Origin: a virus
Taxonomy: Duplodnaviria; Heunggongvirae; Uroviricota; Caudoviricetes
Length of the DNA: 64,000 nucleotides
Strand: one strand, 5' to 3'
IMG/VR virus record: IMGVR_UViG_3300011115_000934
Coordinates: 97,983 to 161,982 of that record
In this document: positions 4,985 to 64,000 of the stretch, one piece after another
How the letters are laid out: each line of letters begins with the position of its first letter
Position numbering within the stretch: the stretch's first letter is position 1
Notes under the pieces: generated by a model
What the model was told of the DNA's origin: nothing
The model's database searches: none
What the model saw: only the letters and a program-made list of their open reading frames with translations
Translations under genes and position numbers: made by a program

Positions 4985-5010
4985 AAGGCTTGCTTAGGCA
5001 AGCTTTTTTT
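4985..5010 (+). terminator. rho-independent terminator GCTTGC-TTAG-GCAAGC + T7
   Basis: Stem 4988-4993/4998-5003, T-run 5004-5010. Confidence 0.6.
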
Positions 5011-5020
5011 CGTATCTTTA
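4990..5020 (+). promoter_or_regulatory. sigma-A-type promoter TTG-N20-TATCTTTA
   Basis: TTG 4990-4992 inside terminator stem, 20-nt spacer, TATCTTTA 5013-5020. Confidence 0.45.
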
Positions 5021-5045
5021 AGTATTAGAAACAAATAAAAGAGTT

Positions 5046-8171: not shown

Positions 8172-8202
8172 TTGCATATGTGAGTCTTTTTTCTTATCTT
8201 TA
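8172..8202 (+). promoter_or_regulatory. sigma-A-type promoter TTG-N20-TATCTTTA
   Basis: TTG 8172-8174, TATCTTTA 8195-8202, preceded by imperfect hairpin/T-run. Confidence 0.4.
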
Positions 8203-8226
8203 ATTATAATTAAAACACAAAAGGTT

Positions 8227-8571
8227 ATGTTTAAAAGATTTTTCAAGTACACACCAACACAACAAGAGCAACAATTCATAGACATTGTAAACAAACTCTT
8301 ACTACATCCTAAAACATCTTTAAGGATGACACCTCTAACAGATAAGTATTTTCTTATCAATGAGCAAAAACATTATTATGTTTTACTAAAGAATAATGGA
8401 ATTCAGATTACTAATTCTAAATTTTCTTTTGCAAAATCATTACACCCAAAAGCTTATGATTATATCATAAATATGATTCATGATAACATGGAAGCAAGTA
8501 GACAAGCTCTAGAGGATAGATTATTTAAAAACGAAACAGATACACTGGATGCAGTGTTAAACAATTTATAA
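8227..8571 (+). CDS. hypothetical protein
   Basis: 114-aa ORF. Confidence 0.5.
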   Translation: MFKRFFKYTPTQQEQQFIDIVNKLLLHPKTSLRMTPLTDKYFLINEQKHYYVLLKNNGIQITNSKFSFAKSLHPKAYDYIINMIHDNMEASRQALEDRLFKNETDTLDAVLNNL

Positions 8572-16370: not shown

Positions 16371-16837
16371 TGAAAGTAGTATTTTTATTTGGAGAGATAT
16401 GCTCAGGTAAGAGCACACTTGACTTTGGAACACAATCTTCAAGAATTACTGTATCTAATATAGTAAAGAGGTTGATGCAATCTGAGGATAGAGAGGTACT
16501 GCAAAACTCTAAACATCTTGATAATATAATAGCAGATGAGATTATAGAGGAGATTGAGAACATATATAGCTACGCATATCCATTTTCACATACAGTTATT
16601 ATAGATGGAATAAGACAGTATTCAATCGTAGAGCAAGTACAACAGTGGTTGACTAATTCTACAAAAATAAAACTAGAATACAAATGGTTAGAAGTTGGTA
16701 GAGAAGAACGTAAAAGAAGATTCGAAGCTCGTAAAGATCCTAAGGATACTTTAACATTTGAAGAGGCAGAAAAAAGAGACAATGCGTTGGGATTATCAGA
16801 TTTATTTAGTATATTAAAAGAACAAAATAAGATATAA
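16370..16837 (+). CDS. P-loop kinase, dNMP-kinase-like
   Basis: MKVVFLFGEICSGKSTL resembles T4 gp1 MKLIFLSGVKRSGKDT N-terminus. Confidence 0.5.
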   Translation: MKVVFLFGEICSGKSTLDFGTQSSRITVSNIVKRLMQSEDREVLQNSKHLDNIIADEIIEEIENIYSYAYPFSHTVIIDGIRQYSIVEQVQQWLTNSTKIKLEYKWLEVGREERKRRFEARKDPKDTLTFEEAEKRDNALGLSDLFSILKEQNKI

Positions 16838-21642: not shown

Positions 21643-23582
<1,940 letters not shown>

Positions 23583-48367: not shown

Positions 48368-48398
48368 TTGCATACTACGAATGTTGTTCGTATATTTG
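48368..48398 (+). promoter_or_regulatory. sigma-A-type promoter TTG-N20-TATATTTG
   Basis: Perfect TAnnTTTG at 48391-48398. Confidence 0.45.
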
Positions 48399-49615: not shown

Positions 49616-49646
49616 TTGCTAGAACGAAAGTTTATCCGTATCTTTA
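49616..49646 (+). promoter_or_regulatory. promoter TTG-N20-TATCTTTA; start codon only 4 nt downstream (leaderless?)
   Basis: TTG 49616-49618, -7 element 49639-49646, ATG 49650. Confidence 0.4.
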
Positions 49647-49649
49647 GGT

Positions 49650-49964
49650 ATGGAAAAAACAGGAGCAACAGTAAAGAAGCTACATGACTTCAGTACCTCA
49701 GGAGTATTAGAGGTGTGCATCAAAGGAACTTGGTATAGGACTACTTGCAATGACTTTAGATCATTTGATGGCAGTAGAAGAATAACTGAGCCAATCAAGC
49801 AACCAGGAATAGGAGACAGGTTTGAGGATATTGTATTCCATACCTACGAATACAATGGTCCTGTATATGTTCTGCAGACAAACCTAGAAGTAATTAGATT
49901 GGATACAGAAACTATTGTAACTAGTCCAAAATTTCCTACATATAAAAAAATCATTAGTAAATAG
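49650..49964 (+). CDS. hypothetical protein
   Basis: 104-aa ORF. Confidence 0.45.
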   Translation: MEKTGATVKKLHDFSTSGVLEVCIKGTWYRTTCNDFRSFDGSRRITEPIKQPGIGDRFEDIVFHTYEYNGPVYVLQTNLEVIRLDTETIVTSPKFPTYKKIISK

Positions 49965-50542: not shown

Positions 50543-50573
50543 TTGCTAGAAAGGAACTTTAGGAGTATCTTTA
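50543..50573 (+). promoter_or_regulatory. promoter TTG-N20-TATCTTTA
   Basis: TTG 50543-50545, -7 element 50566-50573. Confidence 0.45.
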
Positions 50574-50602
50574 GGTATATTAATCAATTAAAACAATCAG
50601 TT

Positions 50603-53673: not shown

Positions 53674-53702
53674 AAAGAGTTGCTTCGGTGACTCTTTTTT
53701 TG
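53674..53702 (+). terminator. terminator AGAGT..TTCG..ACTCT + T7
   Basis: Hairpin + T-run; the next promoter is TTG 53680 / TATCTTTA 53703-53710. Confidence 0.5.
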
Positions 53703-53734
53703 TATCTTTAATTATAATTAAAAACATAAAGGTT

Positions 53735-53842
53735 ATGATACAAGCAATAGTAGGAACAATAGCAGGAGGATGCGTTGTAGGAGGATTCGTAATAGGAATA
53801 GTATTAATTTTTGAAAATGTAGCAAAGAGGCCAAGGCGCTAA
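53735..53842 (+). CDS. 35-aa hydrophobic micro-protein
   Basis: G/V/I-rich single TM helix with KRPRR tail; promoter-driven; below ORF cutoff. Confidence 0.3.
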   Translation: MIQAIVGTIAGGCVVGGFVIGIVLIFENVAKRPRR

Positions 53843-56095: not shown

Positions 56096-56265
56096 CGTTT
56101 ATAAACACCTAGAAAACCGTTTGGAAAAGCGATTGGCAAACCGATCACAGAACCGATTAGGGAACCGTTTGGCAAACCGACTAGCAAACCGTTTGGGGAA
56201 CCGTCTAGTAAACCGATCCTAAAACCGATTTGGCTAACCGATTCGCAATAGAAAACCGTTTTGGT
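56096..56265 (+). repeat. iteron array B: 11 perfectly phased + 3 flanking 12-bp units, consensus GnAAACCGaTTn
   Basis: CCG (once GCG) at 56118, 56130, 56142, 56154, 56166, 56178, 56190, 56202, 56214, 56226, 56239, plus 56096 and 56257; same orientation as array A. Confidence 0.75.
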
Positions 56266-56329
56266 TACGAATATAATAACTGACCCCTATAGCAAAAGTA
56301 AAAAACATTGCGAATAATGTAAAAAAGTG

Positions 56330-56360
56330 TTGCCTGGCAAGCAAAAAAAGAGTATCTTTA
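56330..56360 (+). promoter_or_regulatory. promoter TTG-N20-TATCTTTA
   Basis: TTG 56330-56332, -7 element 56353-56360. Confidence 0.45.
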
Positions 56361-56378
56361 GGGACTAAAGACAAACAT

Positions 56379-56594
56379 ATGACACGTACCCAGGATCTAA
56401 ACACAGTAATAGGAAAAGATTGTTCATGTAATCAGTCTCCTACCCTTAGGGCTAAATTAATCTCAGTAGGCAAACACAAAAGCCTTCTGGAGGTAACCGC
56501 AACTATGTATAGTAGAGCGCAGTGGAATAATATCTACGTAGGGAAAAAGTTTACCCTGGACAACACAATCGCTCACAATATGTATTTTTTCTAG
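56379..56594 (+). CDS. hypothetical protein
   Basis: 71-aa ORF behind a consensus promoter. Confidence 0.4.
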   Translation: MTRTQDLNTVIGKDCSCNQSPTLRAKLISVGKHKSLLEVTATMYSRAQWNNIYVGKKFTLDNTIAHNMYFF

Positions 56595-56703
56595 CCCTAT
56601 GAAAACAATTACCTTAACAATTCAAGAGAGGTGGGCCGCTTCCCAGCACAAGGTGCACAAAAGCAAAAAAACATACGATAGGAAAAATTTACCTAAAGTA
56701 ATA

Positions 56704-56769
56704 CTTTCAGTTAAATCATAGCTTTCAGTTAAAGTGTTGATGGAAGTGAAAGCATTCCTTTCAGTTAAA
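56704..56769 (+). repeat. 3 x CTTTCAGTTAAA direct repeats
   Basis: Copies at 56704, 56722, 56758 in an ORF-free region. Confidence 0.45.
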
Positions 56770-56949
56770 GCTTTGCTTTAAGTAACGAATGTGGAGCGCT
56801 CTCCGGTCTACTCTTCCGGATTGTCAGATCCAGGCCCCTGTCGCATCTCTGCTTTTTCAATACCTAAAGATACCCCTAAAGATCTTTATATGCAACAGTT
56901 TGATCAATTATTTTTGTTATTTTTTTTCATTCTAAATAACAGTTGACTG

Positions 56950-56980
56950 TTGACTTGTACGTTCTTTTATAGTATCTTTA
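56950..56980 (+). promoter_or_regulatory. promoter TTGAC(x2)-N20-TATCTTTA
   Basis: Tandem GTTGACT at 56942-56956; -7 element 56973-56980. Confidence 0.45.
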
Positions 56981-57007
56981 AGTATTAATAATTAAAACAA
57001 CAACATT

Positions 57008-57352
57008 ATGAAAAAATTTGTAGAAGTATTTGTAGGAAGTAGAGGATGTTTAGAAGAAGTTAAATTAGTAGAAACTTATTTTACTTTGAATGAGTATTAT
57101 GAGGATGTAGTAGAGAAGATTAAAGATGAAATGAAAGAAGATTGTGAAGATGAAGAGGATTTAGAATTTATGACTGAATTTGTAGGAGTTGAGGATTATG
57201 AAGGATTTAGTGTAGTAGGATTAAATGAAGAAGAAAGTTTAATTGTATTTGATTTTGATGTGAATAAAGAAGTTTGTGAAAAACTTTTAGAATTGTTTGA
57301 AAATGAAGATGAAGAAGGAATTATGAATATTATTGATAATTTAGATTATTAA
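57008..57352 (+). CDS. highly acidic small protein
   Basis: 114 aa, >35% D/E. Confidence 0.5.
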   Translation: MKKFVEVFVGSRGCLEEVKLVETYFTLNEYYEDVVEKIKDEMKEDCEDEEDLEFMTEFVGVEDYEGFSVVGLNEEESLIVFDFDVNKEVCEKLLELFENEDEEGIMNIIDNLDY

Positions 57353-57381
57353 TAATAATTTAAAAATAAACTGAAAAGTAG

Positions 57382-57412
57382 TTGTGAGAATGATTACTTT
57401 TCAGTATCTTTA
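57382..57412 (+). promoter_or_regulatory. promoter TTG-N20-TATCTTTA inside a 10-bp hairpin (CTGAAAAGTA/TACTTTTCAG)
   Basis: TTG 57382-57384, -7 element 57405-57412. Confidence 0.45.
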
Positions 57413-57438
57413 TCAAAATAATTAAAACAACAACAAAC

Positions 57439-57597
57439 ATGATTGTAAACGAAAGTATAAGGACAGTAATCTTAAGTATTATAAAGTCCAAGATCCAAAG
57501 TGATTCAGTAAGTCCTAATCAAGTAGCCCAGGTTGCTTGGGATTGTGGAGTGGAATTGACAAGTGCTCAAATAGTGTACATTAGTAATAACTTCTAA
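57439..57597 (+). CDS. 52-aa hypothetical protein
   Basis: Promoter-driven, below ORF cutoff. Confidence 0.35.
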   Translation: MIVNESIRTVILSIIKSKIQSDSVSPNQVAQVAWDCGVELTSAQIVYISNNF

Positions 57598-57602
57598 AAA
57601 AG

Positions 57603-57633
57603 TTGCTAGTAAAGTATTAAAGGAGTATCTTTA
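57603..57633 (+). promoter_or_regulatory. promoter TTG-N20-TATCTTTA
   Basis: TTG 57603-57605, -7 element 57626-57633. Confidence 0.45.
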
Positions 57634-57658
57634 TCAAAATAATTAAAACAACAACATC

Positions 57659-58264
57659 ATGAGAGTAGTAGAAACAAAAATTTACACATTCGAGGAATTA
57701 GCAGAGGATTCAAAACAAACTGCAATTGAAAATCACAGAGACGTCAATACGTATGATGGTTGGTGGGAGCCTATCTTTGAAGGAATCACAGAGGAAGCAG
57801 AGCAAGCAGGATTCCATGTAGGGAATATCTACTTTTCAGGATTTTGGTCTCAGGGAGACGGAGCAATGTTTGAGTACACTACAGTAGGGGATACATTGTT
57901 AAATAAATTTGTAGATCAGTTGGATTTATCACCTCTAAGAAAGGAATGGTTGAGATCTCAGACATTTGCACAAAGTAGAGGAGATCACTCAGGACATTAC
58001 TATCACGAGAATTGTTGTGATCATGTTATAGATTTTGAATCTAACTTTGGTTACAATTTTGCTAATATTAATTTTTACAATTGGATCAATAGTTTTGCAG
58101 ATCAGTATGAAGAGTTTGTCATTGCTGAGTACAAATCATTGTGTAGAGAATTGTATAGTAGGTTAAATAAGTACAACGACGAACTTAGTACAGATGAAGC
58201 AGTTGCTGACACTATTATAATGAATGATTGGGAATTTGATGAGGATGGGAATAATTTTCGATAA
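57659..58264 (+). CDS. hypothetical protein
   Basis: 201 aa. Confidence 0.5.
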   Translation: MRVVETKIYTFEELAEDSKQTAIENHRDVNTYDGWWEPIFEGITEEAEQAGFHVGNIYFSGFWSQGDGAMFEYTTVGDTLLNKFVDQLDLSPLRKEWLRSQTFAQSRGDHSGHYYHENCCDHVIDFESNFGYNFANINFYNWINSFADQYEEFVIAEYKSLCRELYSRLNKYNDELSTDEAVADTIIMNDWEFDEDGNNFR

Positions 58265-58269
58265 AAAAG

Positions 58270-58300
58270 TTGCACCGTATTATCTTTTTCAGTATCTTTA
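58270..58300 (+). promoter_or_regulatory. promoter TTG-N20-TATCTTTA
   Basis: TTG 58270-58272, -7 element 58293-58300. Confidence 0.45.
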
Positions 58301-58326
58301 AGTATTAATAATTAAAACAACAAATC

Positions 58327-58620
58327 ATGTCAAGAAAAATTACACAAGAAGCAGTAGCAGCATTTTACAGCAATCGAAAATTCAACAAGTCTAATATGTC
58401 AGTTGAGATCACAGATGAGGGTGAAACCTTATTAAAACTCCATGGCAATACAATTGCAGGAATTAATTACTACGGAACTTGGATCACTGATGCAGGATGG
58501 CCTACCAGAACTACATTTGAAAGATTGAATGGCTTTGACAATGTTAGAGTCAACACCAAGAAGGGTCAGGTGTATTTGAATGGAGAAGCTTGGGATGGAG
58601 AAAAAGTTTATATTAATTAG
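58327..58620 (+). CDS. hypothetical protein
   Basis: 97 aa. Confidence 0.5.
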   Translation: MSRKITQEAVAAFYSNRKFNKSNMSVEITDEGETLLKLHGNTIAGINYYGTWITDAGWPTRTTFERLNGFDNVRVNTKKGQVYLNGEAWDGEKVYIN

Positions 58621-58629
58621 TAAAAAAAG

Positions 58630-58660
58630 TTGCATACGAACTATTAATTCAGTATCTTTA
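58630..58660 (+). promoter_or_regulatory. promoter TTG-N20-TATCTTTA
   Basis: TTG 58630-58632, -7 element 58653-58660. Confidence 0.45.
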
Positions 58661-58688
58661 AGTATTAATAATTAAAACAACAAATCAC

Positions 58689-58949
58689 ATGAAAAGAGGA
58701 ACAGTTACAGGAGAAGTTAAAAGTATTATAAAAGATTTAGGATTGAGTTGGGATTATTCCTACTCTGACAATCGTGTTAAAAATAGTGTAGGAGTTAAGT
58801 TGGTTGGAACTTACTTGACAGAATCTCAGAGAGAAGTTGTTAAAGGTGAAATGATTGAGAGAGGCTTTACTTTTCGTTACATCAGAGAAAATGATAAAGG
58901 TTGGAGAGGTGATTGTAATGGGACTAGGTTTTGTTTTATTAGAAAATAA
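58689..58949 (+). CDS. hypothetical protein
   Basis: 86 aa. Confidence 0.5.
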   Translation: MKRGTVTGEVKSIIKDLGLSWDYSYSDNRVKNSVGVKLVGTYLTESQREVVKGEMIERGFTFRYIRENDKGWRGDCNGTRFCFIRK

Positions 58950-58972
58950 TTTAAAAATAATCGGAGAAAGTG

Positions 58973-59003
58973 TTGCATACTAAATGCTTTCTCCGTATCT
59001 TTA
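58973..59003 (+). promoter_or_regulatory. promoter TTG-N20-TATCTTTA inside an 8-bp hairpin (GGAGAAAG/CTTTCTCC)
   Basis: TTG 58973-58975, -7 element 58996-59003. Confidence 0.45.
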
Positions 59004-59029
59004 GGTATCAATAATTAAAACAACAAATC

Positions 59030-59266
59030 ATGGCTACATTAGTAAAAGTTATTAGAACACCAAAATTCAATTTAGGAGACAAAGTTCAATTCTCTATCAT
59101 CTCAAGACATGACAACTACTCTCCTGAGTATAAAACAATGTACGGATATGCTTCAAAGATTAATAAGGTTACTATGACTATTTTAGGAGTAGATGCTGAA
59201 AGATATGTTGCTAACATCTCAGAAGTAAAAAAATATGTGGATCCATTTGAAGGATTGTCCTTATAA
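59030..59266 (+). CDS. hypothetical protein
   Basis: 78 aa. Confidence 0.5.
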   Translation: MATLVKVIRTPKFNLGDKVQFSIISRHDNYSPEYKTMYGYASKINKVTMTILGVDAERYVANISEVKKYVDPFEGLSL

Positions 59267-59270
59267 AAAG

Positions 59271-59301
59271 TTGCAAGTAAAGTATTAAAAGAGTATCTTT
59301 A
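59271..59301 (+). promoter_or_regulatory. promoter TTG-N20-TATCTTTA
   Basis: TTG 59271-59273, -7 element 59294-59301. Confidence 0.45.
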
Positions 59302-59327
59302 GGTATTAATAATTAAAACAACAAGTT

Positions 59328-59579
59328 ATGTGGAATAAACCAGCACCTTATCGTTCAGTTAAAGAGATTGCAAATTTCTTAAAAGACAATCCTTTTCAAA
59401 CAGAAACTCAAATCCAGGAAAAAGTATTCGGATATTTCAGAAGTTCAAGTTATGAGTCAAATAAAAAGTATGCTGACATGTTAAGACGAGGTCTTGGTAA
59501 GGGGTTATATAAGAGAATCTTGTTACAAGAGGACAGAGATTCAAGAGCTTATTTTAAGTATTTTGTTGAAAATAATTAG
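59328..59579 (+). CDS. hypothetical protein
   Basis: 83 aa. Confidence 0.5.
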   Translation: MWNKPAPYRSVKEIANFLKDNPFQTETQIQEKVFGYFRSSSYESNKKYADMLRRGLGKGLYKRILLQEDRDSRAYFKYFVENN

Positions 59580-59587
59580 TAAAAAAG

Positions 59588-59618
59588 TTGCAAGCAATCG
59601 ATTAAAAGAGTATCTTTA
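59588..59618 (+). promoter_or_regulatory. promoter TTG-N20-TATCTTTA
   Basis: TTG 59588-59590, -7 element 59611-59618. Confidence 0.45.
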
Positions 59619-59642
59619 GGTATCAATAAAAAAATAAGAGTT

Positions 59643-59750
59643 ATGGAAGATGTAAATAGATTCTACGAGTGGATGTTAGCAATGGGAAATATTCATTTAG
59701 CTGACAATGAACAAATGTCAAAGGCTTTTGAAAGGGTTGCTGAGAATTAA
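59643..59750 (+). CDS. 35-aa micro-protein
   Basis: Promoter-driven, below ORF cutoff. Confidence 0.3.
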   Translation: MEDVNRFYEWMLAMGNIHLADNEQMSKAFERVAEN

Positions 59751-59773
59751 ATAATATTTGGATCTGCAGATCC

Positions 59774-59833
59774 AGGAGTGGTTTGGTTAAAGCGTGACTG
59801 TCATCGCAAGAGGTTCGAATCCTCTCACTCCAC
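59774..59833 (+). other. tRNA-like minihelix (T-arm GAGG-TTCGAAT-CCTC + 6-7-bp acceptor stem); not a complete tRNA
   Basis: AGAGGTTCGAATCCTCT is a canonical T-arm; GGAGTG(59775-59780) pairs with CACTCC (59826-59831). Only 28 nt separate the acceptor 5' strand from the T-arm, so the D and anticodon arms cannot both exist. Confidence 0.3.
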
Positions 59834-60080
59834 TAAAAATTATCCAAAGTAAAAAGCTCTACACCTGACTGAAGCCTGAGTACTACCAATTATAAAGGTA
59901 CAGGGGGAGGAGGGAACATAGTATACTAGAAGGCTGGTGAAGCTCCAGAAGGATAATTTTATTTAAAAATAATTAGCTATTAGGTGGAATCCCCTATTTT
60001 GAATGAGTTATGCAGTGAGTGTCACCTGCTTTGGAAAAACAATAGGTAGTTAATTAATTTAAAAATAATTGAATAAAAAG

Positions 60081-60111
60081 TTGCAAGCAGTCTATTAATT
60101 GAGTATCTTTA
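60081..60111 (+). promoter_or_regulatory. promoter TTG-N20-TATCTTTA
   Basis: TTG 60081-60083, -7 element 60104-60111. Confidence 0.45.
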
Positions 60112-60137
60112 GGTATTAATAATTAAAAAGATATATT

Positions 60138-60425
60138 ATGAGAGCATACACAGAGAAACAATACTACGTAATAGACAAATCAGTCTACAGAAACGGAAAT
60201 CTTATAACTACCTTGAAAAGGCCTTTACAAGCAGAGGTTCATGCTGAGGGCTTAAACAAGCAATTTGGAGACTTAGAGGCTTATGAATTGTTAATCAGTA
60301 TTAGAAATGAAATAACCTTACATGAGGATGGAGAATTCTCTGCTGAAACTATTGTAGAGTCAATCAAAGCAATCCTAGATAGTAGAGAAAAAAAGTTGTA
60401 TAAAAAGTTGCATAGTAAGTTCTAA
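60138..60425 (+). CDS. hypothetical protein
   Basis: 95 aa. Confidence 0.5.
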   Translation: MRAYTEKQYYVIDKSVYRNGNLITTLKRPLQAEVHAEGLNKQFGDLEAYELLISIRNEITLHEDGEFSAETIVESIKAILDSREKKLYKKLHSKF

Positions 60426-60466
60426 TTCAGTATCTTTAGGTATTAATAATTAAAACAGATAACAAC

Positions 60467-61252
60467 ATGACAAGAATTCAAGTATTACAAGACGCAAGAG
60501 CAGAGTGGGTAGAAAAAAATATCGCTGCTAAAGAAACAACAAGTGAGATCTACGCAAGAGAGCAGAATGCAATTAAAGATGTACTACTTCCTTTCTTTGA
60601 AGATTTCAGTGAAGGAGTATTGGTTGAAGTAGGAAGAGGATCTGTCTACTTTAAAATGTTTGATCCTCAAAGAGGTTACCATAAAGAGATCTTCAGTCTG
60701 TATTTGAAAGAGAATTATTTTGGTGAGGGTGATCGCTACTCTGCTGTTGATCTTTCTTATTACACTACTTCAACGAGTGGAGTTGATGAATGGGAGTTGA
60801 AAAGATTACAGTTGTTAGGAAAACTTGCTGAGGTTGTGAAGGATAATCAGTTTTCAATACTTCATGCTGCTAATAAAGTTATACCTACTTTCAAAGAAGA
60901 GTACGAAGTTGCATTTCAGTTACAGAATATGATCAGTACTGCAATCAGTGATATTGATGTTAGAATACGTCAATTGATAAAAGAAAGAGTTGAGTTTGAT
61001 TTGAAAGCAGATGGAATAGTATTCTCAGAAAGAGTTGAGATTGATCTAAAGTATAACTACACTCCAAGAGTTCAGTTCATCAAGTTAGAAAATATAAGTA
61101 AGAGTGGTAAGACAGCTACAGTCGTTTACATGACTAGTGATGGGTACCAGACAAAAGAAGAGAATTGCAACATAGAAAAAATAGTGGACCAGGTTGCTCA
61201 CTACTATCCTAACTTTGCTATAGATACCAAGGAGGAGTTGTTACCTTCTTAG
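60467..61252 (+). CDS. hypothetical protein
   Basis: 261 aa. Confidence 0.55.
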   Translation: MTRIQVLQDARAEWVEKNIAAKETTSEIYAREQNAIKDVLLPFFEDFSEGVLVEVGRGSVYFKMFDPQRGYHKEIFSLYLKENYFGEGDRYSAVDLSYYTTSTSGVDEWELKRLQLLGKLAEVVKDNQFSILHAANKVIPTFKEEYEVAFQLQNMISTAISDIDVRIRQLIKERVEFDLKADGIVFSERVEIDLKYNYTPRVQFIKLENISKSGKTATVVYMTSDGYQTKEENCNIEKIVDQVAHYYPNFAIDTKEELLPS

Positions 61253-61334
61253 TTTTAATTATTGATCAAAGAAAGAGCTGCCTTAGGGTGGCTCTTTTGG
61301 GTTATAAATAATTTGAAAATAATTGTAAAAAAAG

Positions 61335-61365
61335 TTGCACCACTTGTATTAATTGAGTATCTTTA
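61335..61365 (+). promoter_or_regulatory. promoter TTG-N20-TATCTTTA
   Basis: TTG 61335-61337, -7 element 61358-61365; upstream hairpin AGAGCTGCC..GGTGGCTCT + T-run acts as terminator. Confidence 0.45.
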
Positions 61366-61391
61366 GGTATCAATAATTAAAACAACAAATC

Positions 61392-61574
61392 ATGACAACA
61401 ATTAATTCTTACTTTGCAGACAAATTTCCTCACATTAACTTTCAGGGATTAGACCAATCAGTGGTTAGTGACTTTATGTCCAATACTTACTTAATAGGTT
61501 TAGACTTTCCTGAACAAATGGAATGCCTTGCGGATTATATAGTTGCAAATGACTTAACTGAAGTATCAATTTAA
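61392..61574 (+). CDS. hypothetical protein
   Basis: 60 aa. Confidence 0.45.
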   Translation: MTTINSYFADKFPHINFQGLDQSVVSDFMSNTYLIGLDFPEQMECLADYIVANDLTEVSI

Positions 61575-61585
61575 TTAGAACAAAC

Positions 61586-62023
61586 ATGACAAAATTATTC
61601 AGAGACGTAGATTATTACGTAGTGCAGGCTTCTAATAGTACACAGAGAGAATTTGAATTAGACTTCGCAGACATCATTGAAGTTTATGATACAAATGAAA
61701 CTACAATCACTACACAGTGTGGTAGAACTGTAATCATTAATTGGGAGGACAAAGGTTACTTTAAGTCCTATCATGTAATCTACGAGACTGCTCAAATGGA
61801 AAGTTCTATCAATAGAACATATATTAATGATATTATCAATAAGCTTCGTACAATAGAGGTAGATGGAGAAACTATGCAGTACATTATTGAGAAAGTTGGA
61901 ATGACAGATCAGATGTTAAGACAATTAGTAATGAATAATCCTTACACTGATACTTCAGATCTATTGGAGGAGAAAGTTAGATTGAGTGATGAATACTTAA
62001 GATCACTTTCTAAAAATAATTAG
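61586..62023 (+). CDS. hypothetical protein
   Basis: 145 aa. Confidence 0.5.
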   Translation: MTKLFRDVDYYVVQASNSTQREFELDFADIIEVYDTNETTITTQCGRTVIINWEDKGYFKSYHVIYETAQMESSINRTYINDIINKLRTIEVDGETMQYIIEKVGMTDQMLRQLVMNNPYTDTSDLLEEKVRLSDEYLRSLSKNN

Positions 62024-62031
62024 TAAAAAAG

Positions 62032-62062
62032 TTGCAAGTAAAGTATTAAAAGAGTATCTTTA
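62032..62062 (+). promoter_or_regulatory. promoter TTG-N20-TATCTTTA
   Basis: TTG 62032-62034, -7 element 62055-62062. Confidence 0.45.
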
Positions 62063-62090
62063 GGTATTAATAATTAAAACAAACAATATT

Positions 62091-62270
62091 ATGTCAGACA
62101 GAAACAAAGCCTTTGAATTACAAGAGAGATTAGAAGAGAACGGAGTCTCACACGCTTCTTTGTTAGGATTTTTAATGAACGATTACTTCTCAGGATCTGC
62201 AGTATTAGGAGCAATGCAAAGTGCTTTAATTGAATTTGGATTAGAAGAAGAAGAAGAGGAAGATGAATAA
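62091..62270 (+). CDS. 59-aa acidic-tailed protein (paralogue of 62610-62777)
   Basis: Promoter-driven + strand ORF; GSAVLGAMQSALIEF vs GSEALNAMICAEEEF; the ORF-track minus-strand call 62089-62301 is rejected. Confidence 0.4.
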   Translation: MSDRNKAFELQERLEENGVSHASLLGFLMNDYFSGSAVLGAMQSALIEFGLEEEEEEDE

Positions 62271-62286
62271 AAAAGTTTAAAAAAAA

Positions 62287-62317
62287 GTTGCAAGCAATCA
62301 ATTAAAAGAGTATCTTT
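62287..62317 (+). promoter_or_regulatory. promoter TTG-N20-TATCTTTA
   Basis: TTG 62287-62289, -7 element 62310-62317. Confidence 0.45.
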
Positions 62318-62345
62318 AGGTATTAATAATTAAAACAAATAAAAC

Positions 62346-62594
62346 ATGAAAAGTTTAGATCAAGTTAACATTGAGGACATTAAGTCAGACAAGAAGTATT
62401 TGTTAGTAGTTTCGATGTATGAAAGATATGGTGATGGAGGGACGGAATCTTACATTGGGACAGGAGATGAAGTTATTGAAGAGATCAAACAAATCTTTGG
62501 TTATGAAGAAGAGGAGGGAGATGATTGGTTAGAGTTTGTTGAAGAGAGAAATGGTGATGGAGATGATTTCGTTGAAGTATTTGAAGTTGAATAA
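62346..62594 (+). CDS. acidic small protein
   Basis: 82 aa, D/E/G-rich. Confidence 0.5.
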   Translation: MKSLDQVNIEDIKSDKKYLLVVSMYERYGDGGTESYIGTGDEVIEEIKQIFGYEEEEGDDWLEFVEERNGDGDDFVEVFEVE

Positions 62595-62609
62595 TTAAAA
62601 TAACAAACT

Positions 62610-62777
62610 ATGTCAAGAAGTAATCGTGATCAAGCAATAGACAAAAAAGAACAACTACTAGAGATGATCTCAGCAGAGAGATTATTAGATTATGTATTAG
62701 AAAATTACTTAGGAGGATCAGAAGCATTGAATGCAATGATTTGTGCTGAGGAAGAGTTCTTTCCTGAAGAAGATTAA
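62610..62777 (+). CDS. 55-aa acidic-tailed protein (paralogue of 62091-62270)
   Basis: + strand ORF replacing the minus-strand call 62608-62814. Confidence 0.4.
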   Translation: MSRSNRDQAIDKKEQLLEMISAERLLDYVLENYLGGSEALNAMICAEEEFFPEED

Positions 62778-62800
62778 TTAAAAAATAATTAGTAAAAAAG

Positions 62801-62831
62801 TTGCACCACATCAATTAAAAGAGTATCTTTA
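62801..62831 (+). promoter_or_regulatory. promoter TTG-N20-TATCTTTA
   Basis: TTG 62801-62803, -7 element 62824-62831. Confidence 0.45.
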
Positions 62832-62860
62832 GGTATTAATAATTAAAACAACAAATCATT

Positions 62861-63238
62861 ATGAAAAAAGAATTAGTATTACAATCAGTTCAGAATTCAG
62901 TATCTTCAATCTTTTCAAAAGAAGATGTTATCAATCTTATCAATTCAGTTGAAGGTTCTAGTAGAGTAATTACTACTAACGATATTCAGAGAGCGATTGA
63001 TAATACAATTAGTTGGATTGAAAACAATGAAAGAGAAGTATTAGATTTGGATAATGCTGAGTTTGAAATCTCTTACAACAATCAATTAGAATGTACTAGT
63101 GTAGGAATTAACACTAATGAGATTCGTGAAGCATTAGAAAATAACTTCATGGATTTTGGAGAAGTTGATGAAGTTCAACAAGATGCTGATGAAAAAGAAT
63201 TAGAAGAGATTAAACGTATTGAGGAGGATTTTAGTTAA
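62861..63238 (+). CDS. acidic protein
   Basis: 125 aa. Confidence 0.5.
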   Translation: MKKELVLQSVQNSVSSIFSKEDVINLINSVEGSSRVITTNDIQRAIDNTISWIENNEREVLDLDNAEFEISYNNQLECTSVGINTNEIREALENNFMDFGEVDEVQQDADEKELEEIKRIEEDFS

Positions 63239-63247
63239 TTAAAAAAA

Positions 63248-63291
63248 GTTAGCAGATCAGTTGCTGGTCTGCTTTCTTTTGGGTATCTTTA
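63248..63291 (+). promoter_or_regulatory. fused terminator hairpin (AGCAGATCAG/CTGGTCTGCT) + promoter TTG-N20-TATCTTTA
   Basis: -33 TTG 63261-63263 sits in the hairpin loop; -7 element 63284-63291. Confidence 0.45.
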
Positions 63292-63317
63292 GGTATTAAT
63301 AATTAAAACAAAACACT

Positions 63318-63509
63318 ATGGCAAAGTTCAATGGTTTCGAAAAGTATTTATTGGTTCAAGGTTTAGATAGAGTGGCTTTAGAAATGAAAGCAGATATCAG
63401 AGATCTGGAAGAGAGAGGAAAAAATCCTTTAATGACTGTTGGATATGTTGAGATGGTTGTAAGAGATACTTTAGATAAGTTAAATTCATTTACACTCAAA
63501 CAAAAGTAG
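63318..63509 (+). CDS. hypothetical protein
   Basis: 63 aa. Confidence 0.45.
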   Translation: MAKFNGFEKYLLVQGLDRVALEMKADIRDLEERGKNPLMTVGYVEMVVRDTLDKLNSFTLKQK

Positions 63510-63713
63510 ATGAGTGAACTATATAACACATGGAAAGGAAAGGGGAGGAAGGTTTCTAAGACCTCCCCTCCAATGATCGGAATGATATATCAATCAAACA
63601 ATTACATAGGAGCATTAGTTGCAATTGAAGATGATGTTGCAACATTACAATTGAAGAATAAAAGTCTAATCAAAGTACAAGTACAAACACTAAAAATCAA
63701 GATCGATGGATAA
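63510..63713 (+). CDS. hypothetical protein
   Basis: 67 aa. Confidence 0.45.
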   Translation: MSELYNTWKGKGRKVSKTSPPMIGMIYQSNNYIGALVAIEDDVATLQLKNKSLIKVQVQTLKIKIDG

Positions 63714-63852
63714 AGTAAAGCAGTTCAAGAATAGTATCACATTGGGAGGTAAGAAGTATTTCAACTCTGCTTACTTAATGAACATCGGTAAATCTTTTGA
63801 TGGAGCAGAGTTTGTTAAGGTTGGTAATCAAGTATTTTATTTAGTAAAATAG
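63706..63852 (+). CDS. 48-aa hypothetical protein
   Basis: Overlapping start; weak. Confidence 0.25.
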   Translation: MDKVKQFKNSITLGGKKYFNSAYLMNIGKSFDGAEFVKVGNQVFYLVK

Positions 63853-63883
63853 TTGCATCATAAATGTTTATTTAGTATCTTTA
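63853..63883 (+). promoter_or_regulatory. promoter TTG-N20-TATCTTTA
   Basis: TTG 63853-63855, -7 element 63876-63883. Confidence 0.45.
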
Positions 63884-63911
63884 GGTATCAATAATTAAAA
63901 CAAGATACATT

Positions 63912-64000
63912 ATGACAAGAGAACAATTCTTAAACGGAACAATTTTTACAGTAGGGTTTGTAACTTACAAAGGAGCAAGTACTTATTCGTACAACGAGAA
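63912..64000 (+). CDS. hypothetical protein (5' partial at window end)
   Basis: ATG behind a consensus promoter; runs off the window. Confidence 0.4.
   Translation, partial: MTREQFLNGTIFTVGFVTYKGASTYSYNE

Follow-up and report, generated by a model that had tools for sequence, protein, structure and literature searches.

Between positions 56950 and 63883 of a 64,000-nt stretch of phage DNA (the window), one sequence recurs ahead of a run of small genes, raising the question of what function the repeat carries. The DNA is that of a large Flavobacterium phage, an uncultured relative of Flavobacterium phage immuto; the cassette-bearing phage is a myovirus with a T4-like capsid, of the Immutovirus-like lineage. 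The repeats are probably composite gene-expression cassettes. In the mechanism that we propose from the sequence, a cassette would begin with the stop codon of the upstream gene joined to an A-tract, with, in about half of the copies, AAAATAATT 20 nt before the TTG, the A-tract and AAAATAATT serving as an UP-element-like sequence; would continue with the −33 element GTTGC, a 20-nt gap that is AT-rich in its 3′ portion, and a −7 box TAT(C/A)TTTA followed by GGTA, the expected transcription start; and would end with a 22-25-nt, G-poor leader, (U)AAUAAUUAAAACAAC, in which, counted from the AUG, AAAA occupies −15 to −12 and position −3 is a purine. Host RNA polymerase and its primary sigma factor would read the first four of these parts, the A-run and purine positions of the leader would raise translation in Flavobacterium (by extension from Baez 2019), and, in about one cassette in five, a GC hairpin with a T-tract behind it, placed around the TTG or past it, would terminate transcription coming in from upstream.

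The repeat in the window and in related phages

A motif search bears out the existence of a repeated promoter-leader module. GTATCTTTA occurs 24 times in the whole window (1.6 expected), and TTG-N20-TATCTTTA also occurs 24 times (0.18 expected), with zero matches in the window at spacers of 17-19 or 21-23 nt between TTG and TATCTTTA; the 20-nt spacing is invariant, as had been claimed. Sixteen of these copies lie on the + strand within 56950-63883, seven further + strand copies lie elsewhere in the window, and one copy is on the − strand. The original prediction of about 20 near-identical 60-bp copies was too generous on both counts: 16 same-strand copies were found in the interval, or 17 counting the opposite strand nearby, and pairwise identity over 60 nt averages 68% (range 42-93%), with 84% in the 30-nt core around the box and 45% in the spacer. 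The limits of the interval originally given coincide exactly with the first TTG and with the final base of the last box.

Cassette 1, defined by the motif and the ORF start, extends from the TTG to the base before the ATG at 57008 (56950-57007; T of TATCTTTA at 56973). It is followed on the + strand (position of that T after the semicolon) by cassette 2 (57382-57438; 57405), a TATCTTTATCAAAATAATT variant inside a hairpin at 57370-57405 (dG −15.8); cassette 3 (57603-57658; 57626), a TCAA variant; cassettes 4 (58270-58326; 58293) and 5 (58630-58688; 58653); cassette 6 (58973-59029; 58996), inside a terminator-like hairpin at 58962-58995 (dG −17.6); cassette 7 (59271-59327; 59294); cassette 8 (59588-59642; 59611), which has the divergent leader AATAAAAAAATAAGAGTT and precedes a 35-aa ORF conserved in 13 loci; cassette 9 (60081-60137; 60104); cassette 10 (60408-60466; 60431), before a 261-aa gene whose conservation is the widest in the array; cassettes 11 (61335-61391; 61358), 12 (62032-62090; 62055), 13 (62288-62345; 62311) and 14 (62801-62860; 62824); cassette 15 (63261-63317; 63284), with its TTG in the loop of a terminator-like hairpin at 63251-63273 (dG −13.8); and cassette 16 (63853-63911; 63876), in a region 83% identical to immuto. 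An ORF-opening ATG lies 32-37 nt past the T of the TAT in all 16 array copies, and 16 of the 20 array ORFs have a cassette of their own, the exceptions being those at 61586, 62610, 63510 and 63706. The upstream element AAAATAAT(T) is present in about 7 of the 16 array copies, and window-wide it lies exactly 20 nt before the TTG at 7 of 13 sites.

Outside the array, + strand copies have the T of TATCTTTA at 5013, 8195, 12885, 49639, 50566, 53703 and 56353. Array-type promoters lie within terminators at 4990-5020 (dG −15.0), at 8172-8226, where a leader-like TATAATTAAAACA is present, and at 53680-53734; the promoter at 50543-50602 precedes a DUF932 gene, and that at 56330-56378 precedes a conserved 71-aa ORF (56379-56594) and is convergent with a minus-strand promoter. 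Variant boxes of the same architecture were also found as predicted, TATATTTA, TATATTAA and TATATTAT preceding replication and chaperonin genes elsewhere in the window with N20 kept. The broader class TTG-N20-TAT[ACT]TT[AT][ATG] occurs 36 times on the coding strand vs. twice on the other, and 29 of the 36 are followed by a gene start at a distance of 20-60 nt (p = 4e-26).

The repeat extends to related phages. In immuto there are 34 cassette copies (33 + 1) at N20, vs. 0-5 at other spacings, and 30 fall within the 16-76 kb non-structural part. A further 263 distinct copies were collected from IMG/VR contigs by means of 21 nt of the cassette, whose conservation among these copies follows from the way they were collected; 261 of the 263 have TTG at N20, the box is TATCTTTA in 139 and TATATTTA in 121, and the ATG lies 33-37 nt past the box start in 254. 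The coding DNA of the compared phages has diverged, yet the cassettes have been kept. In a control set of 596 Gb of bacterial genomes there is no instance of the full motif; the cassette 21-mer has 17 isolated matches there, all without TTG at N20 and without TA at the box start.

The leader and its complement

Flavobacterium translates without Shine-Dalgarno pairing, and A at particular positions raises translation (Baez 2019, PMC6847099). The leader had been proposed to substitute for a Shine-Dalgarno sequence, and its composition agrees: position −13 is A in 97%, −12 in 92% and −6 in 58%, and position −3 is A in 79% and a purine in 96%; of 260 leaders, 3 contain a Shine-Dalgarno-like 4-mer; and there is 0.78 G per 25 nt vs. 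2.99 in other genes. With the Kozak-like start regions of Flavobacterium (Baez 2019) the leader shares A at −3, −6, −12 and −13, A-richness from −14 to −11, the lack of a Shine-Dalgarno sequence and low pairing potential; it differs from them in that a single, fixed sequence appears hundreds of times over, where theirs is a statistical bias. We infer, from the match to these positions, that it is a Shine-Dalgarno-free, A-rich translation leader.

Across the lineage, 19 nt of the leader core hardly vary, which is more conservation than an unstructured A-rich enhancer seems to need, and it may therefore carry a second function. It is possible, if rather unlikely, that GGTATYAATAATTAAAACA, the downstream half, acts chiefly as a regulatory target, whether operator or RNA site, at which a single phage product, a protein or an 'anti-leader' RNA, would shut off all the genes together. 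A candidate for such an RNA, overlooked in the original prediction, lies inside the array on the + strand at the 3′ end of the 261-aa gene (61229-61304), which comprises a covarying hairpin (61229-61250), the stop codon, TTTTAATTATTGATC (61253-61267) and a terminator hairpin (61263-61304). Within TTTTAATTATTGATC, 13 invariant nucleotides are complementary to the leader and lie single-stranded between two hairpins that both covary; duplexes with 14 of the 16 leaders are predicted at −12.8 to −15.0 kcal/mol, and none of 90 other start regions pairs with it at −10 kcal/mol or better. Regulators derived from 3′ UTRs and phage antisense regulators are known, for example CpxQ-type sRNAs and the c4 RNA of P1 and P7; Bacteroidota are not known to have Hfq. 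The element resembles these in having a conserved single-stranded seed directly before a terminator hairpin and U-tail, and in the complementarity of that seed to several targets, but the putative RNA would target the shared 5′ leader of a whole gene class. Against this reading, the duplex is short and AU-rich, and the A positions of the leader fit the known translation determinants well. The leader also keeps its register with the ATG and not with the promoter: it remains 19-23 nt from the ATG where insertions part it from the promoter, and it is found alone before internal ORFs, for example as the promoterless leader AATAATTAAAATAACAAACT at 62590-62609 (+) before ORF 62610. This fits a role at the ribosome, but an RNA target would do likewise, and the regulatory-target and translation-leader roles are not exclusive.

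The promoter half and host promoters

Passages in Baez 2019 (PMC6847099, relaying Bayley 2000 and Chen 2007) and in Guerin 2021 (PMC9723704) give TTTG at −33 and TAnnTTTG at −7 for Bacteroidota primary-sigma promoters. In host promoters the box spans −12 to −5 with TTTG around −33, the consensus is TAHHTTTG with AT-rich motifs at −18 and −28, transcription starts 4-5 nt past the box, the spacing varies over 19-21, and the class with a −33 box has the highest expression and a C+A-rich 3′ extension. In the cassettes, with GTTGC as −33 element and TAHHTTTA as −7 box, the TTG-N20-TA geometry places G at −33 and T at −12 as in the published host promoter. The two further share TA at −12/−11, TTT at −8 to −6 and the lack of G at −10/−9; in both, the TTG ends at −33 and the spacer is AT-rich near −18, and the stretch past the cassette box is C+A-rich, a trait of the host class with the highest expression. 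The cassettes differ in that more than 99% of them (323 of 325) have A where the host has G at −5, and in having GTTG for TTTG, an invariant N20 and a conserved GGTAT. The geometry of the predicted Bacteroidota sigma-A architecture thus fits, whereas the final A of the box departs from the host G at −5. The central reading, a Bacteroidota −33/−7 type promoter joined to a Shine-Dalgarno-free leader, held up in all the sequence and comparative tests applied, and the original interpretation is partly supported; the activity and strength of the promoter are predicted from sequence. Sigma-70-type promoters are not enriched (52 found vs. 64 expected).

The systematic A, the conserved GGTAT and the strict N20 leave room for a phage-specific recognition factor. 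We regard it as unlikely, however, that the cassettes, instead of being read by unmodified host sigma-A holoenzyme, depend on a factor that the phage supplies, be it an injected modifier, a sigma-like protein or an activator; with such a factor the array could be 'middle' rather than immediate-early. In its favour, promoters of F. johnsoniae have a 'nearly invariant' G at −5, GTTGC and GGTAT are conserved beyond the host consensus, the bacterial genomes of the control above lack the full motif, and T4 offers precedents in Alt and MotA/AsiA (Hinton 2010, PMC2988021). Nevertheless, no RNA polymerase, sigma factor or known activator is annotated in immuto or emerged from the screens run, the best phmmer hit to sigma-70 having E = 0.057 and no PHROG match; the TTG agrees with the host consensus, as do the T, A and TTT positions of the box; and boxes ending in TTTA exist, as a minority, among mapped F. 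psychrophilum sigma-A promoters. The early promoters of T4 ('uber' UP/−35/TGn/−10) likewise exceed the host consensus, yet the host enzyme reads them (Hinton 2010, PMC2988021). They are similar to the cassette promoters in being many and near-consensus for the host, in having extra conserved positions and an A/T-rich upstream element, and in serving a phage that captures the host enzyme without an RNA polymerase of its own; they differ in sigma specificity, and the cassettes in addition conserve a transcribed leader and depart systematically from the host consensus at −5. By analogy with T4, the array genes may be expressed early.

Transcription would be expected to start 3-5 nt past the box end (about 11-13 nt from the first T), not 7-9 nt after the element as had been predicted. 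Four genes with an ATG 3-4 nt past the box, at 49650 in the window and at 16431, 20739 and 52406 in immuto, offer a hint of the start site; at the window promoter (49616-49649, +) the ATG is only 3 nt past the box (GGTATG), which implies a leaderless or nearly leaderless mRNA.

The promoter half is also used by itself. The single − strand copy (56861-56895, box 56872-56865) consists only of the promoter half, GTTGC-N19-GTATCTTTAGGTA, without an mRNA leader, and it precedes a conserved, predicted noncoding RNA (56722-56862, −) made up of GGGGCCUG, a covarying hairpin, GGAAGAGUAGAC, a short hairpin and tandem AU-rich hairpins. In 24 loci the promoter half alone stands ahead of such a predicted RNA on the other strand. 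The same type of promoter would therefore also drive a predicted divergent small noncoding RNA, which was missed in the original prediction. A 58-nt tRNA-like element was a by-product of the analysis.

Hairpins of dG ≤ −10 occur in 60 of the 263 IMG/VR cassettes, with a T-rich tail after 59 of them. In the window, terminator-like hairpins wrap 3 of the 16 array copies, in agreement with the proposal that promoters are embedded in terminators. These three and one separate terminator are the only interruptions of the array, so that its genes would form nested, overlapping transcription units, and not one independent unit each as had been proposed.

Cassettes as probable joints of gene shuffling

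In loci of related phages, gene order and per-gene identity are mosaic, and different genes stand in different order in the slots between cassettes. Ends of blocks of at least 85% identity fall within 50 nt of a box in 17 of 27 cases vs. 20% expected (p = 1.6e-6). The cassettes appear to be joints of gene shuffling between related phages, an aspect that had gone unseen; with the same 35-60 nt lying between otherwise unrelated small genes, they could also serve as sites of homologous exchange.

It is distinctly improbable that the repeats are chiefly recombination substrates or mobile cassettes, spread by selfish propagation or gene conversion and with promoter activity secondary. Such a reading would account for homology blocks that end at cassettes, for genes transposed and duplicated between slots, and for spacers shared between non-adjacent cassettes (identical, for example, in cassettes 7 and 12), and the PeSL mini-circles of T4-type phages are a precedent. 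But the TTG, TA and TTT, and the A positions relative to the ATG, are invariant while the spacer is free, and position-specific conservation with a free spacer is a signature of function, not merely of copying; orientation and distance to the ATG are likewise strict, and the promoter half serves again for a predicted noncoding RNA. That the repeats are no expression signals at all, but replication iterons, packaging signals or REP-like intergenic repeats, is extremely unlikely: they are repetitive, intergenic and AT-rich, and tandem palindromes by the divergent promoter (56700-56790) look iteron-like, but they match host promoter geometry exactly, are confined to one strand, stand 32-37 nt ahead of an ATG in every case, and are dispersed over the whole non-structural half of the genome, and GC skew gives no origin signal.

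As gene-expression cassettes at which homology blocks begin and end, the repeats would be a Bacteroidota counterpart of the PeSL cassettes of T4-type phages, about 50 repeated intergenic motifs per genome that are concentrated in hyperplastic regions before small ORFans and for which mini-circles have been described (Arbiol 2010, PMC2839356; Comeau 2014, PMC4122927). Both comprise an AT-rich tract that holds the stop codon of the preceding gene, a promoter that the primary sigma factor of the host reads (in the repeats described here, would read), a stem-loop or terminator between or over the promoter boxes, a ribosome-binding region and a start codon, and both sit at the borders of insertions and replacements between related phages. 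They differ in that the cassette promoter is of the Bacteroidota −33/−7 type and not sigma-70 −35/−10, in that a conserved G-poor, A-rich leader takes the place of the Shine-Dalgarno sequence, in that about 20-25% of cassettes have a stem-loop, most being 'Pe' without 'SL', and in host phylum and phage lineage (Immutovirus-like). The phage thus places the same compact signal, which would start transcription and have the message translated well, before sixteen successive small genes, a T4 strategy that would be written in Bacteroidota signals.

Cassette repeats in the window and in related phages

The repeat array at 56950-63883 is real, and the main interpretation in the original prediction, which had seen about 20 near-identical 60-bp promoter-leader units before early genes, is the best one. 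The sequence GTATCTTTA occurs 24 times in the 64-kb window, as compared to 1.6 expected occurrences, and the composite pattern TTG-N20-TATCTTTA, in which a 20-nt gap separates TTG from the box, likewise occurs 24 times, as compared to 0.18 expected. The spacing is invariant, as had been predicted: it is found in 24/24 window copies, with zero matches in the 64-kb window to TTG plus box at gaps of 17-19 or 21-23 nt. Sixteen + strand copies span 56950-63883, exactly the coordinates predicted for the array; seven further + strand copies lie elsewhere (5013, 8195, 12885, 49639, 50566, 53703, and 56353), and the sole opposite-strand copy has its box at 56872..56865 (- strand), so that the count for the array is 16-17 rather than about 20. 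In all 16 array copies, an ATG that opens an ORF lies 32-37 nt past the T of TAT, and 16 of the 20 array ORFs, within ~7 kb, have their own cassette copy. Neither Pfam nor PHROG assigns a function to most of these ORFs, and sequence searches of PHROGs, Pfam, and PDB gave no function for array proteins. The cassette has the order TAA-AAAAAG-TTGC, box, leader, ATG, with an AT-rich tract that includes the stop codon of the upstream gene. Near-identity over 60 bp does not hold: the unit is bipartite, with a mean identity of 68% overall, 84% in the 30 nt around the box, and 45% in the spacer, and identical spacers are shared by non-adjacent cassettes in the window. The upstream element AAAATAATT, which had been included in the predicted unit, is usually located exactly 20 nt before TTG when present, but is found in only about half of the copies. 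The array region at 62001-64000 and the 68-72 kb region of Flavobacterium phage vB_FspM_immuto (immuto) have the lowest G+C of the genome (0.29-0.30) and, with a strikingly C-poor coding strand, a GC skew of +0.32, by far the highest of the genome.

Immuto, a myovirus of 160 kb whose portal and capsid genes are T4-like, is the sole DNA match to the window among 50,697 cultured phage records. The window genes, which are all on the same strand, include a family-A DNA polymerase, GroEL, an RNA ligase, and many glycosyltransferases, and the gene order polA, GroES/EL, glycosyltransferases, small-gene array, baseplate is common to immuto and the window. The coding strand of immuto carries 33 copies of TTG-N20-TAT(A/C)TTTA, whereas any other spacing gives 0-5 copies, and the opposite strand has a single copy; 30 of the 33 lie within the non-structural region at 16-76 kb, and 16 full cassettes lie at 67.6-73.8 kb. 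In IMG/VR, the pattern GTTGC-N19-GTATCTTTAGGTAT was too strict and gave zero matches; a leader-based scan with the 21-mer TTTAGRTATYAATAATTAAAA identified at least 80 loci, which carry as many as 15 copies apiece and lie on contigs up to 167 kb long. Among the matches listed are 263 distinct copies, and in these the features outside those imposed by the 21-mer recur: TTG is located exactly 20 nt upstream in 261/263, the box is TATCTTTA in 139 and TATATTTA in 121, and the first ATG is located 33-37 nt past the box start in 254/263 (36 nt in 164). A control scan of 596 Gb of bacterial genomes for this 21-mer yielded 17 isolated matches, all of which lack both TTG at N20 and TA at the box start. 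Because the bacterial control matches lack TTG at N20 and TA, we conclude that the cassette is specific to the immuto-like lineage and was not taken from a host gene. One more bacterial-genome match is a phage fragment binned into a MAG. A 3.3-kb contig with five full cassettes (CAJBLF010000034.1, 'uncultured bacterium bin-782'), which had been assigned to a bacterial MAG, evidently derives from an immuto-like phage and is not bacterial DNA. In the literature searched, the coverage of which is incomplete, we found no earlier account of the cassette in Flavobacterium phages.

Comparison of the 20 array proteins with the related loci (tblastn) shows a conserved backbone within which other genes are inserted, transposed, or duplicated, and adjacent genes on a single contig have identities anywhere from 38% to 94%. 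In DNA comparisons, most blocks with an identity of 85% or more are single-gene modules that begin and end in cassettes (e.g., 56970-57441, 96.8% identical to locus L026, and 57417-57599, 99.5% identical to locus L066), and single-gene modules at 97-99.5% identity are flanked by diverged DNA. Block ends fall within 50 nt of a box in 17/27 cases, vs. 20% expected (p = 1.6e-6).

Promoter type, transcription units, and leader

In Flavobacterium, the -7 box TAnnTTTG spans -12 to -5, and a TTTG box around -33 marks the most highly expressed promoter class, in which a C+A-rich extension also follows the -7 box (Guerin 2021, PMC9723704); the consensus has been refined to TAHHTTTG, AT-rich motifs being located at -18 and -28 and the start 4-5 nt past the box (Baez 2019, PMC6847099). 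The cassettes match this architecture, to which the original prediction had assigned them, apart from one consistent deviation within the box. T-12, A-11, the lack of G at -10 and -9, and T-8, T-7, and T-6 are all found, with TAT(C/A)TTT in 24/24 window copies and 318/325 copies of the lineage. A gap of exactly 20 nt, as in the phage, separates the published positions of G at -33 and T at -12; TTG located exactly 20 nt before TA places G at -33, and the base preceding TTG is G, not T. In host promoters this gap is about 19-21 nt. The conserved spacer sequence TATTAAwwGAG coincides with the host -18 AT-rich motif. The exception is -5, where G is 'nearly invariant' in F. johnsoniae promoters (Baez 2019, PMC6847099): the last base of the box is A in 323/325 lineage copies (window, immuto, and related loci L006-L085). 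TTTA boxes are a minority among mapped F. psychrophilum sigma-A promoters, and the sole TTG-N20 promoter of the window with a host-consensus box has its box, TATATTTG, at 48391.

Because A at -5 departs systematically from the host G, we file the cassettes, on the basis of their bases and spacing, as a putative phage variant of the host promoter type and not as members of its consensus, and we keep as a rival the possibility that a phage-specific factor, instead of the plain host enzyme, reads them. The near-uniform A at -5, set against the near-invariant host G, favors such a factor; however, the immuto annotation includes neither an RNA polymerase nor a sigma factor. With the C-terminal half of E. 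coli sigma-70 as the query, a phmmer screen that covered every ORF gave a best E value of 0.057, for a protein with no PHROG match, and Pfam on ten neighbouring genes gave DUF932 and SPFH only, results which, as regards a sigma factor or RNA polymerase, are absence of evidence only. E. coli-like, sigma-70-type promoters are ruled out because they are not enriched in the window.

Variants of the host-type phage promoter would also serve genes outside the array, which fits the original proposal of variants for other genes. TTG-N20 with box TATATTTA, TATATTAA, TATATTAT, or TATATTTG occurs 36 times on the coding strand vs. 2 times on the other strand, with a gene start within 20-60 nt downstream in 29/36 cases (p = 4e-26), and copies with variant boxes and N20 spacing sit before polA and the GroES/GroEL genes, among others. 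In four genes (window 49650; immuto 16431, 20739, and 52406), the ATG is merely 3-4 nt past the box, which implies mRNAs that would be leaderless or nearly leaderless. If these four genes are translated, transcription must start at or just before the A of GGTA, the sequence that ends the promoter half of the cassette; the predicted start would then be within about a base of the published position, and the cassette leader would be 22-25 nt long. The median 5'UTR in F. psychrophilum is 24 nt (Guerin 2021, PMC9723704). The near-leaderless promoters have the sequence TATCTTTAGGTATG (49639-49652 in the window; 16419, 20728, and 52395 in the immuto record).

Folding of the segment from -46 to -11 gives a bimodal distribution: 60 of the 263 listed cassettes have a hairpin with dG of -10 kcal/mol or below, and the rest have essentially none. 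A T-rich tail follows the hairpin in 59 of these 60 cassettes, and the usual layout is A-tract, GTTGCCTC-TTCG-GAGGC, T-tract. Promoters embedded in terminator-like hairpins, as originally predicted, are present in 3/16 array copies (57370-57405, 58962-58995, and 63251-63273, + strand) and absent in the other 13; beyond the array, 3/6 copies are of this type. A separate predicted array terminator is located at 61263-61304 (+ strand). With so few predicted terminators in the array, most genes would also have to be transcribed from upstream promoters, and the array genes would be nested under those promoters and would not be the independent transcription units that had been envisaged.

The two halves of the cassette can be found apart. 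The promoter half alone, extending to GGTA, is present on the - strand where the array begins, both in the window and in immuto, and likewise in 22 other distinct loci among those listed; a predicted noncoding RNA there takes the place of the leader. The leader without a promoter precedes internal ORFs (window 62590; position 842 of locus L007). Insertions of 3-14 nt between GGTATC and AATAATTAAAA leave the leader-ATG distance at 19-23 nt. Relative to the ATG, A has a frequency of 97% at -13, 92% at -12, 79% at -3 (purine 96%), and 58% at -6; Shine-Dalgarno-like 4-mers are present in 3/260 leaders; and G occurs 0.78 times per 25 nt in leaders vs. 2.99 times in the other genes of the window. 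The leader thus has the Flavobacterium Kozak-like pattern, with A at -3, -6, -12, and -13 and no Shine-Dalgarno sequence, and these A positions are those that raise translation in F. johnsoniae (Baez 2019, PMC6847099). The match supports, by correlation, the proposal that the leader is a translation enhancer that substitutes for a Shine-Dalgarno sequence, and by that measure the proposal is well supported. Many non-array gene starts (e.g., 5013-5045, 8195-8229, and 53703-53737) have the context AAAGGTTATG or AAGAGTTATG, unlike the cassette leader.

Candidate RNA elements of the array region

The most conserved gene of the array, encoding 261 aa (60467-61252), ends in a structured element at 61229-61304 (+ strand), which is also present at 22060-22170 of locus L003 and in ~23 other loci. 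In this element, a covarying hairpin spans the last codons, and the stop codon is followed by UUUUAAUUAUUGA, which is invariant and single-stranded, and then by a terminator; UUUUAAUUAUUGA is exactly complementary to the early leader that most cassette genes share. The leader-core complement TTTTAATTATT occurs on the coding strand at 28 sites in 871 kb; 24 of these immediately follow the stop codon in homologues of the 261-aa gene, with a terminator hairpin only a few nt further on in nearly all cases. In an alignment of 17 sites, 13 invariant unpaired columns lie between two helices, 94.6% of cells are paired (41-56% in slid-control alignments), and 16/22 pairs show both-sided changes, vs. 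8.2 +/- 1.4 in shuffles (0/500). Predicted duplexes with 14/16 leaders have energies of -12.8 to -15.0 kcal/mol, whereas 0/90 other start regions reach -10. The predicted layout, comprising a conserved single-stranded seed, a terminator hairpin, and target complementarity, is that of 3'UTR-derived sRNAs.

As a hypothesis only, the element at 61229-61304 may be a 3'UTR-derived RNA aimed at the common leader. As the RNA accumulated, it would bind each early mRNA by pairing with its nucleotides 2-16, and the pairing would shut down early-mRNA translation or trigger decay. We consider it unlikely that the shared leader has this role, beyond translation enhancement, as the common handle of a phage-wide RNA switch. 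If true, it would provide a timed, self-limiting early phase without a protein repressor, in a phylum, the Bacteroidota, that is not known to have Hfq and does without Shine-Dalgarno pairing.

The sole minus-strand promoter of the otherwise one-strand genome, at the head of the array, precedes a conserved, putative noncoding RNA (56722-56895, - strand, promoter included; ~67270-67555, - strand, in the immuto record). The core of this divergent RNA comprises GGGGCCUG, a hairpin, GGAAGAGUAGAC, a short hairpin, and then 2-6 AU-rich hairpins, which are tandem units of ACUUAAAG-N5-CUUUAACU; the main hairpin shows compensatory changes in 4/7 pairs. There are 24 distinct homologues among the loci listed, with tandem duplicates in loci L028 and L050. 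A minus-strand noncoding RNA of ~500 nt, considered as a candidate, was partly right: only ~140 nt (56722-56862) are noncoding, and conservation of the distal 300 nt is explained by two small protein-coding ORFs on the + strand (56379-56594, 71 aa, and 56599-56721, 40 aa, with protein-level conservation in 10 and ~40 related loci, respectively). Since these ORFs are transcribed toward the minus-strand promoter, 56380-56860 may be convergently transcribed, with sense/antisense overlap. A replication origin at the divergent promoter is unsupported, cumulative GC skew being monotonic in both the window and immuto.

A 58-nt miniature cloverleaf is located at ~59774-59833 (+ strand), within an ORF-free gap (59751-60060). 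An acceptor stem of 6 bp is combined with two arms of 4 bp and a canonical T arm, AGAGG-UUCGAAU-CCUCU, and six related loci carry the element with 73-90% conservation. It may mimic a tRNA or signal processing by RNase P/Z. With ARAGORN, neither a tRNA nor a tmRNA was called in the window, the cloverleaf included, and Rfam gave nothing relevant, either for the whole window at gathering thresholds or permissively over 56200-60150, with no match to the divergent RNA. The complement-of-leader element, the divergent small RNA, and the miniature tRNA-like structure are unannotated RNA elements that merit transcriptome attention.

Relation to T4-type early cassettes

Promoter-early stem-loop (PeSL) cassettes of T4-type phages are repeated ~50 times per genome in hyperplastic regions; each combines an AT-rich tract, within which the upstream gene stops, with a strong promoter of host type, a ribosome-binding site, and a start codon, a terminator stem-loop lies between or over the promoter boxes, and the cassettes mediate modular shuffling (Arbiol 2010, PMC2839356; Comeau 2014, PMC4122927). 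The cassettes analyzed here resemble PeSLs in being repeated, intergenic phage elements concentrated in a plastic region before small genes that mostly have no assigned function, in combining a promoter, an upstream stop codon in an AT-rich tract, a ribosome-binding region, and a start codon, and in marking the ends of indels and replacements between related phages (17/27 block ends near a box). They differ from PeSLs in having Bacteroidota signals, vs. sigma-70 promoters and Shine-Dalgarno sequences, in having a conserved transcribed leader, and in having a stem-loop in only about a fifth of copies (3/16 in the window array, 60/263 among those listed). By analogy, by comparison, and from their sequence features, the repeats are probably PeSL-like promoter-leader composite cassettes of an Immutovirus-like Flavobacterium phage. 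The principle is already known from T4, the early promoters of which are over-specified host-type promoters with UP elements (Hinton 2010, PMC2988021); what is new is its implementation in Bacteroidota signals, together with the invariant A at -5 and the element complementary to the leader.

With more than 300 natural copies, the cassette offers a ready-made mutational scan of both a Bacteroidota promoter and a leader that lacks a Shine-Dalgarno sequence. The spacer and -9 tolerate change, and TTG, N20, TA, TTT, A at -5, GGTA, and AAAA at -15 to -12 do not, a map that is directly useful for the design of strong, compact expression parts in Flavobacterium and related bacteria, for which few genetic tools exist. 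How sigma-A recognizes promoters with a systematic A at -5 is a clean, testable question. For a Bacteroidota phage lineage that is common in metagenomes and has one cultured representative only, the cassettes extend the T4 logic past Proteobacteria and cyanobacteria: over-specified host-type promoters would win the polymerase, and the cassettes that carry them would double as recombination joints.
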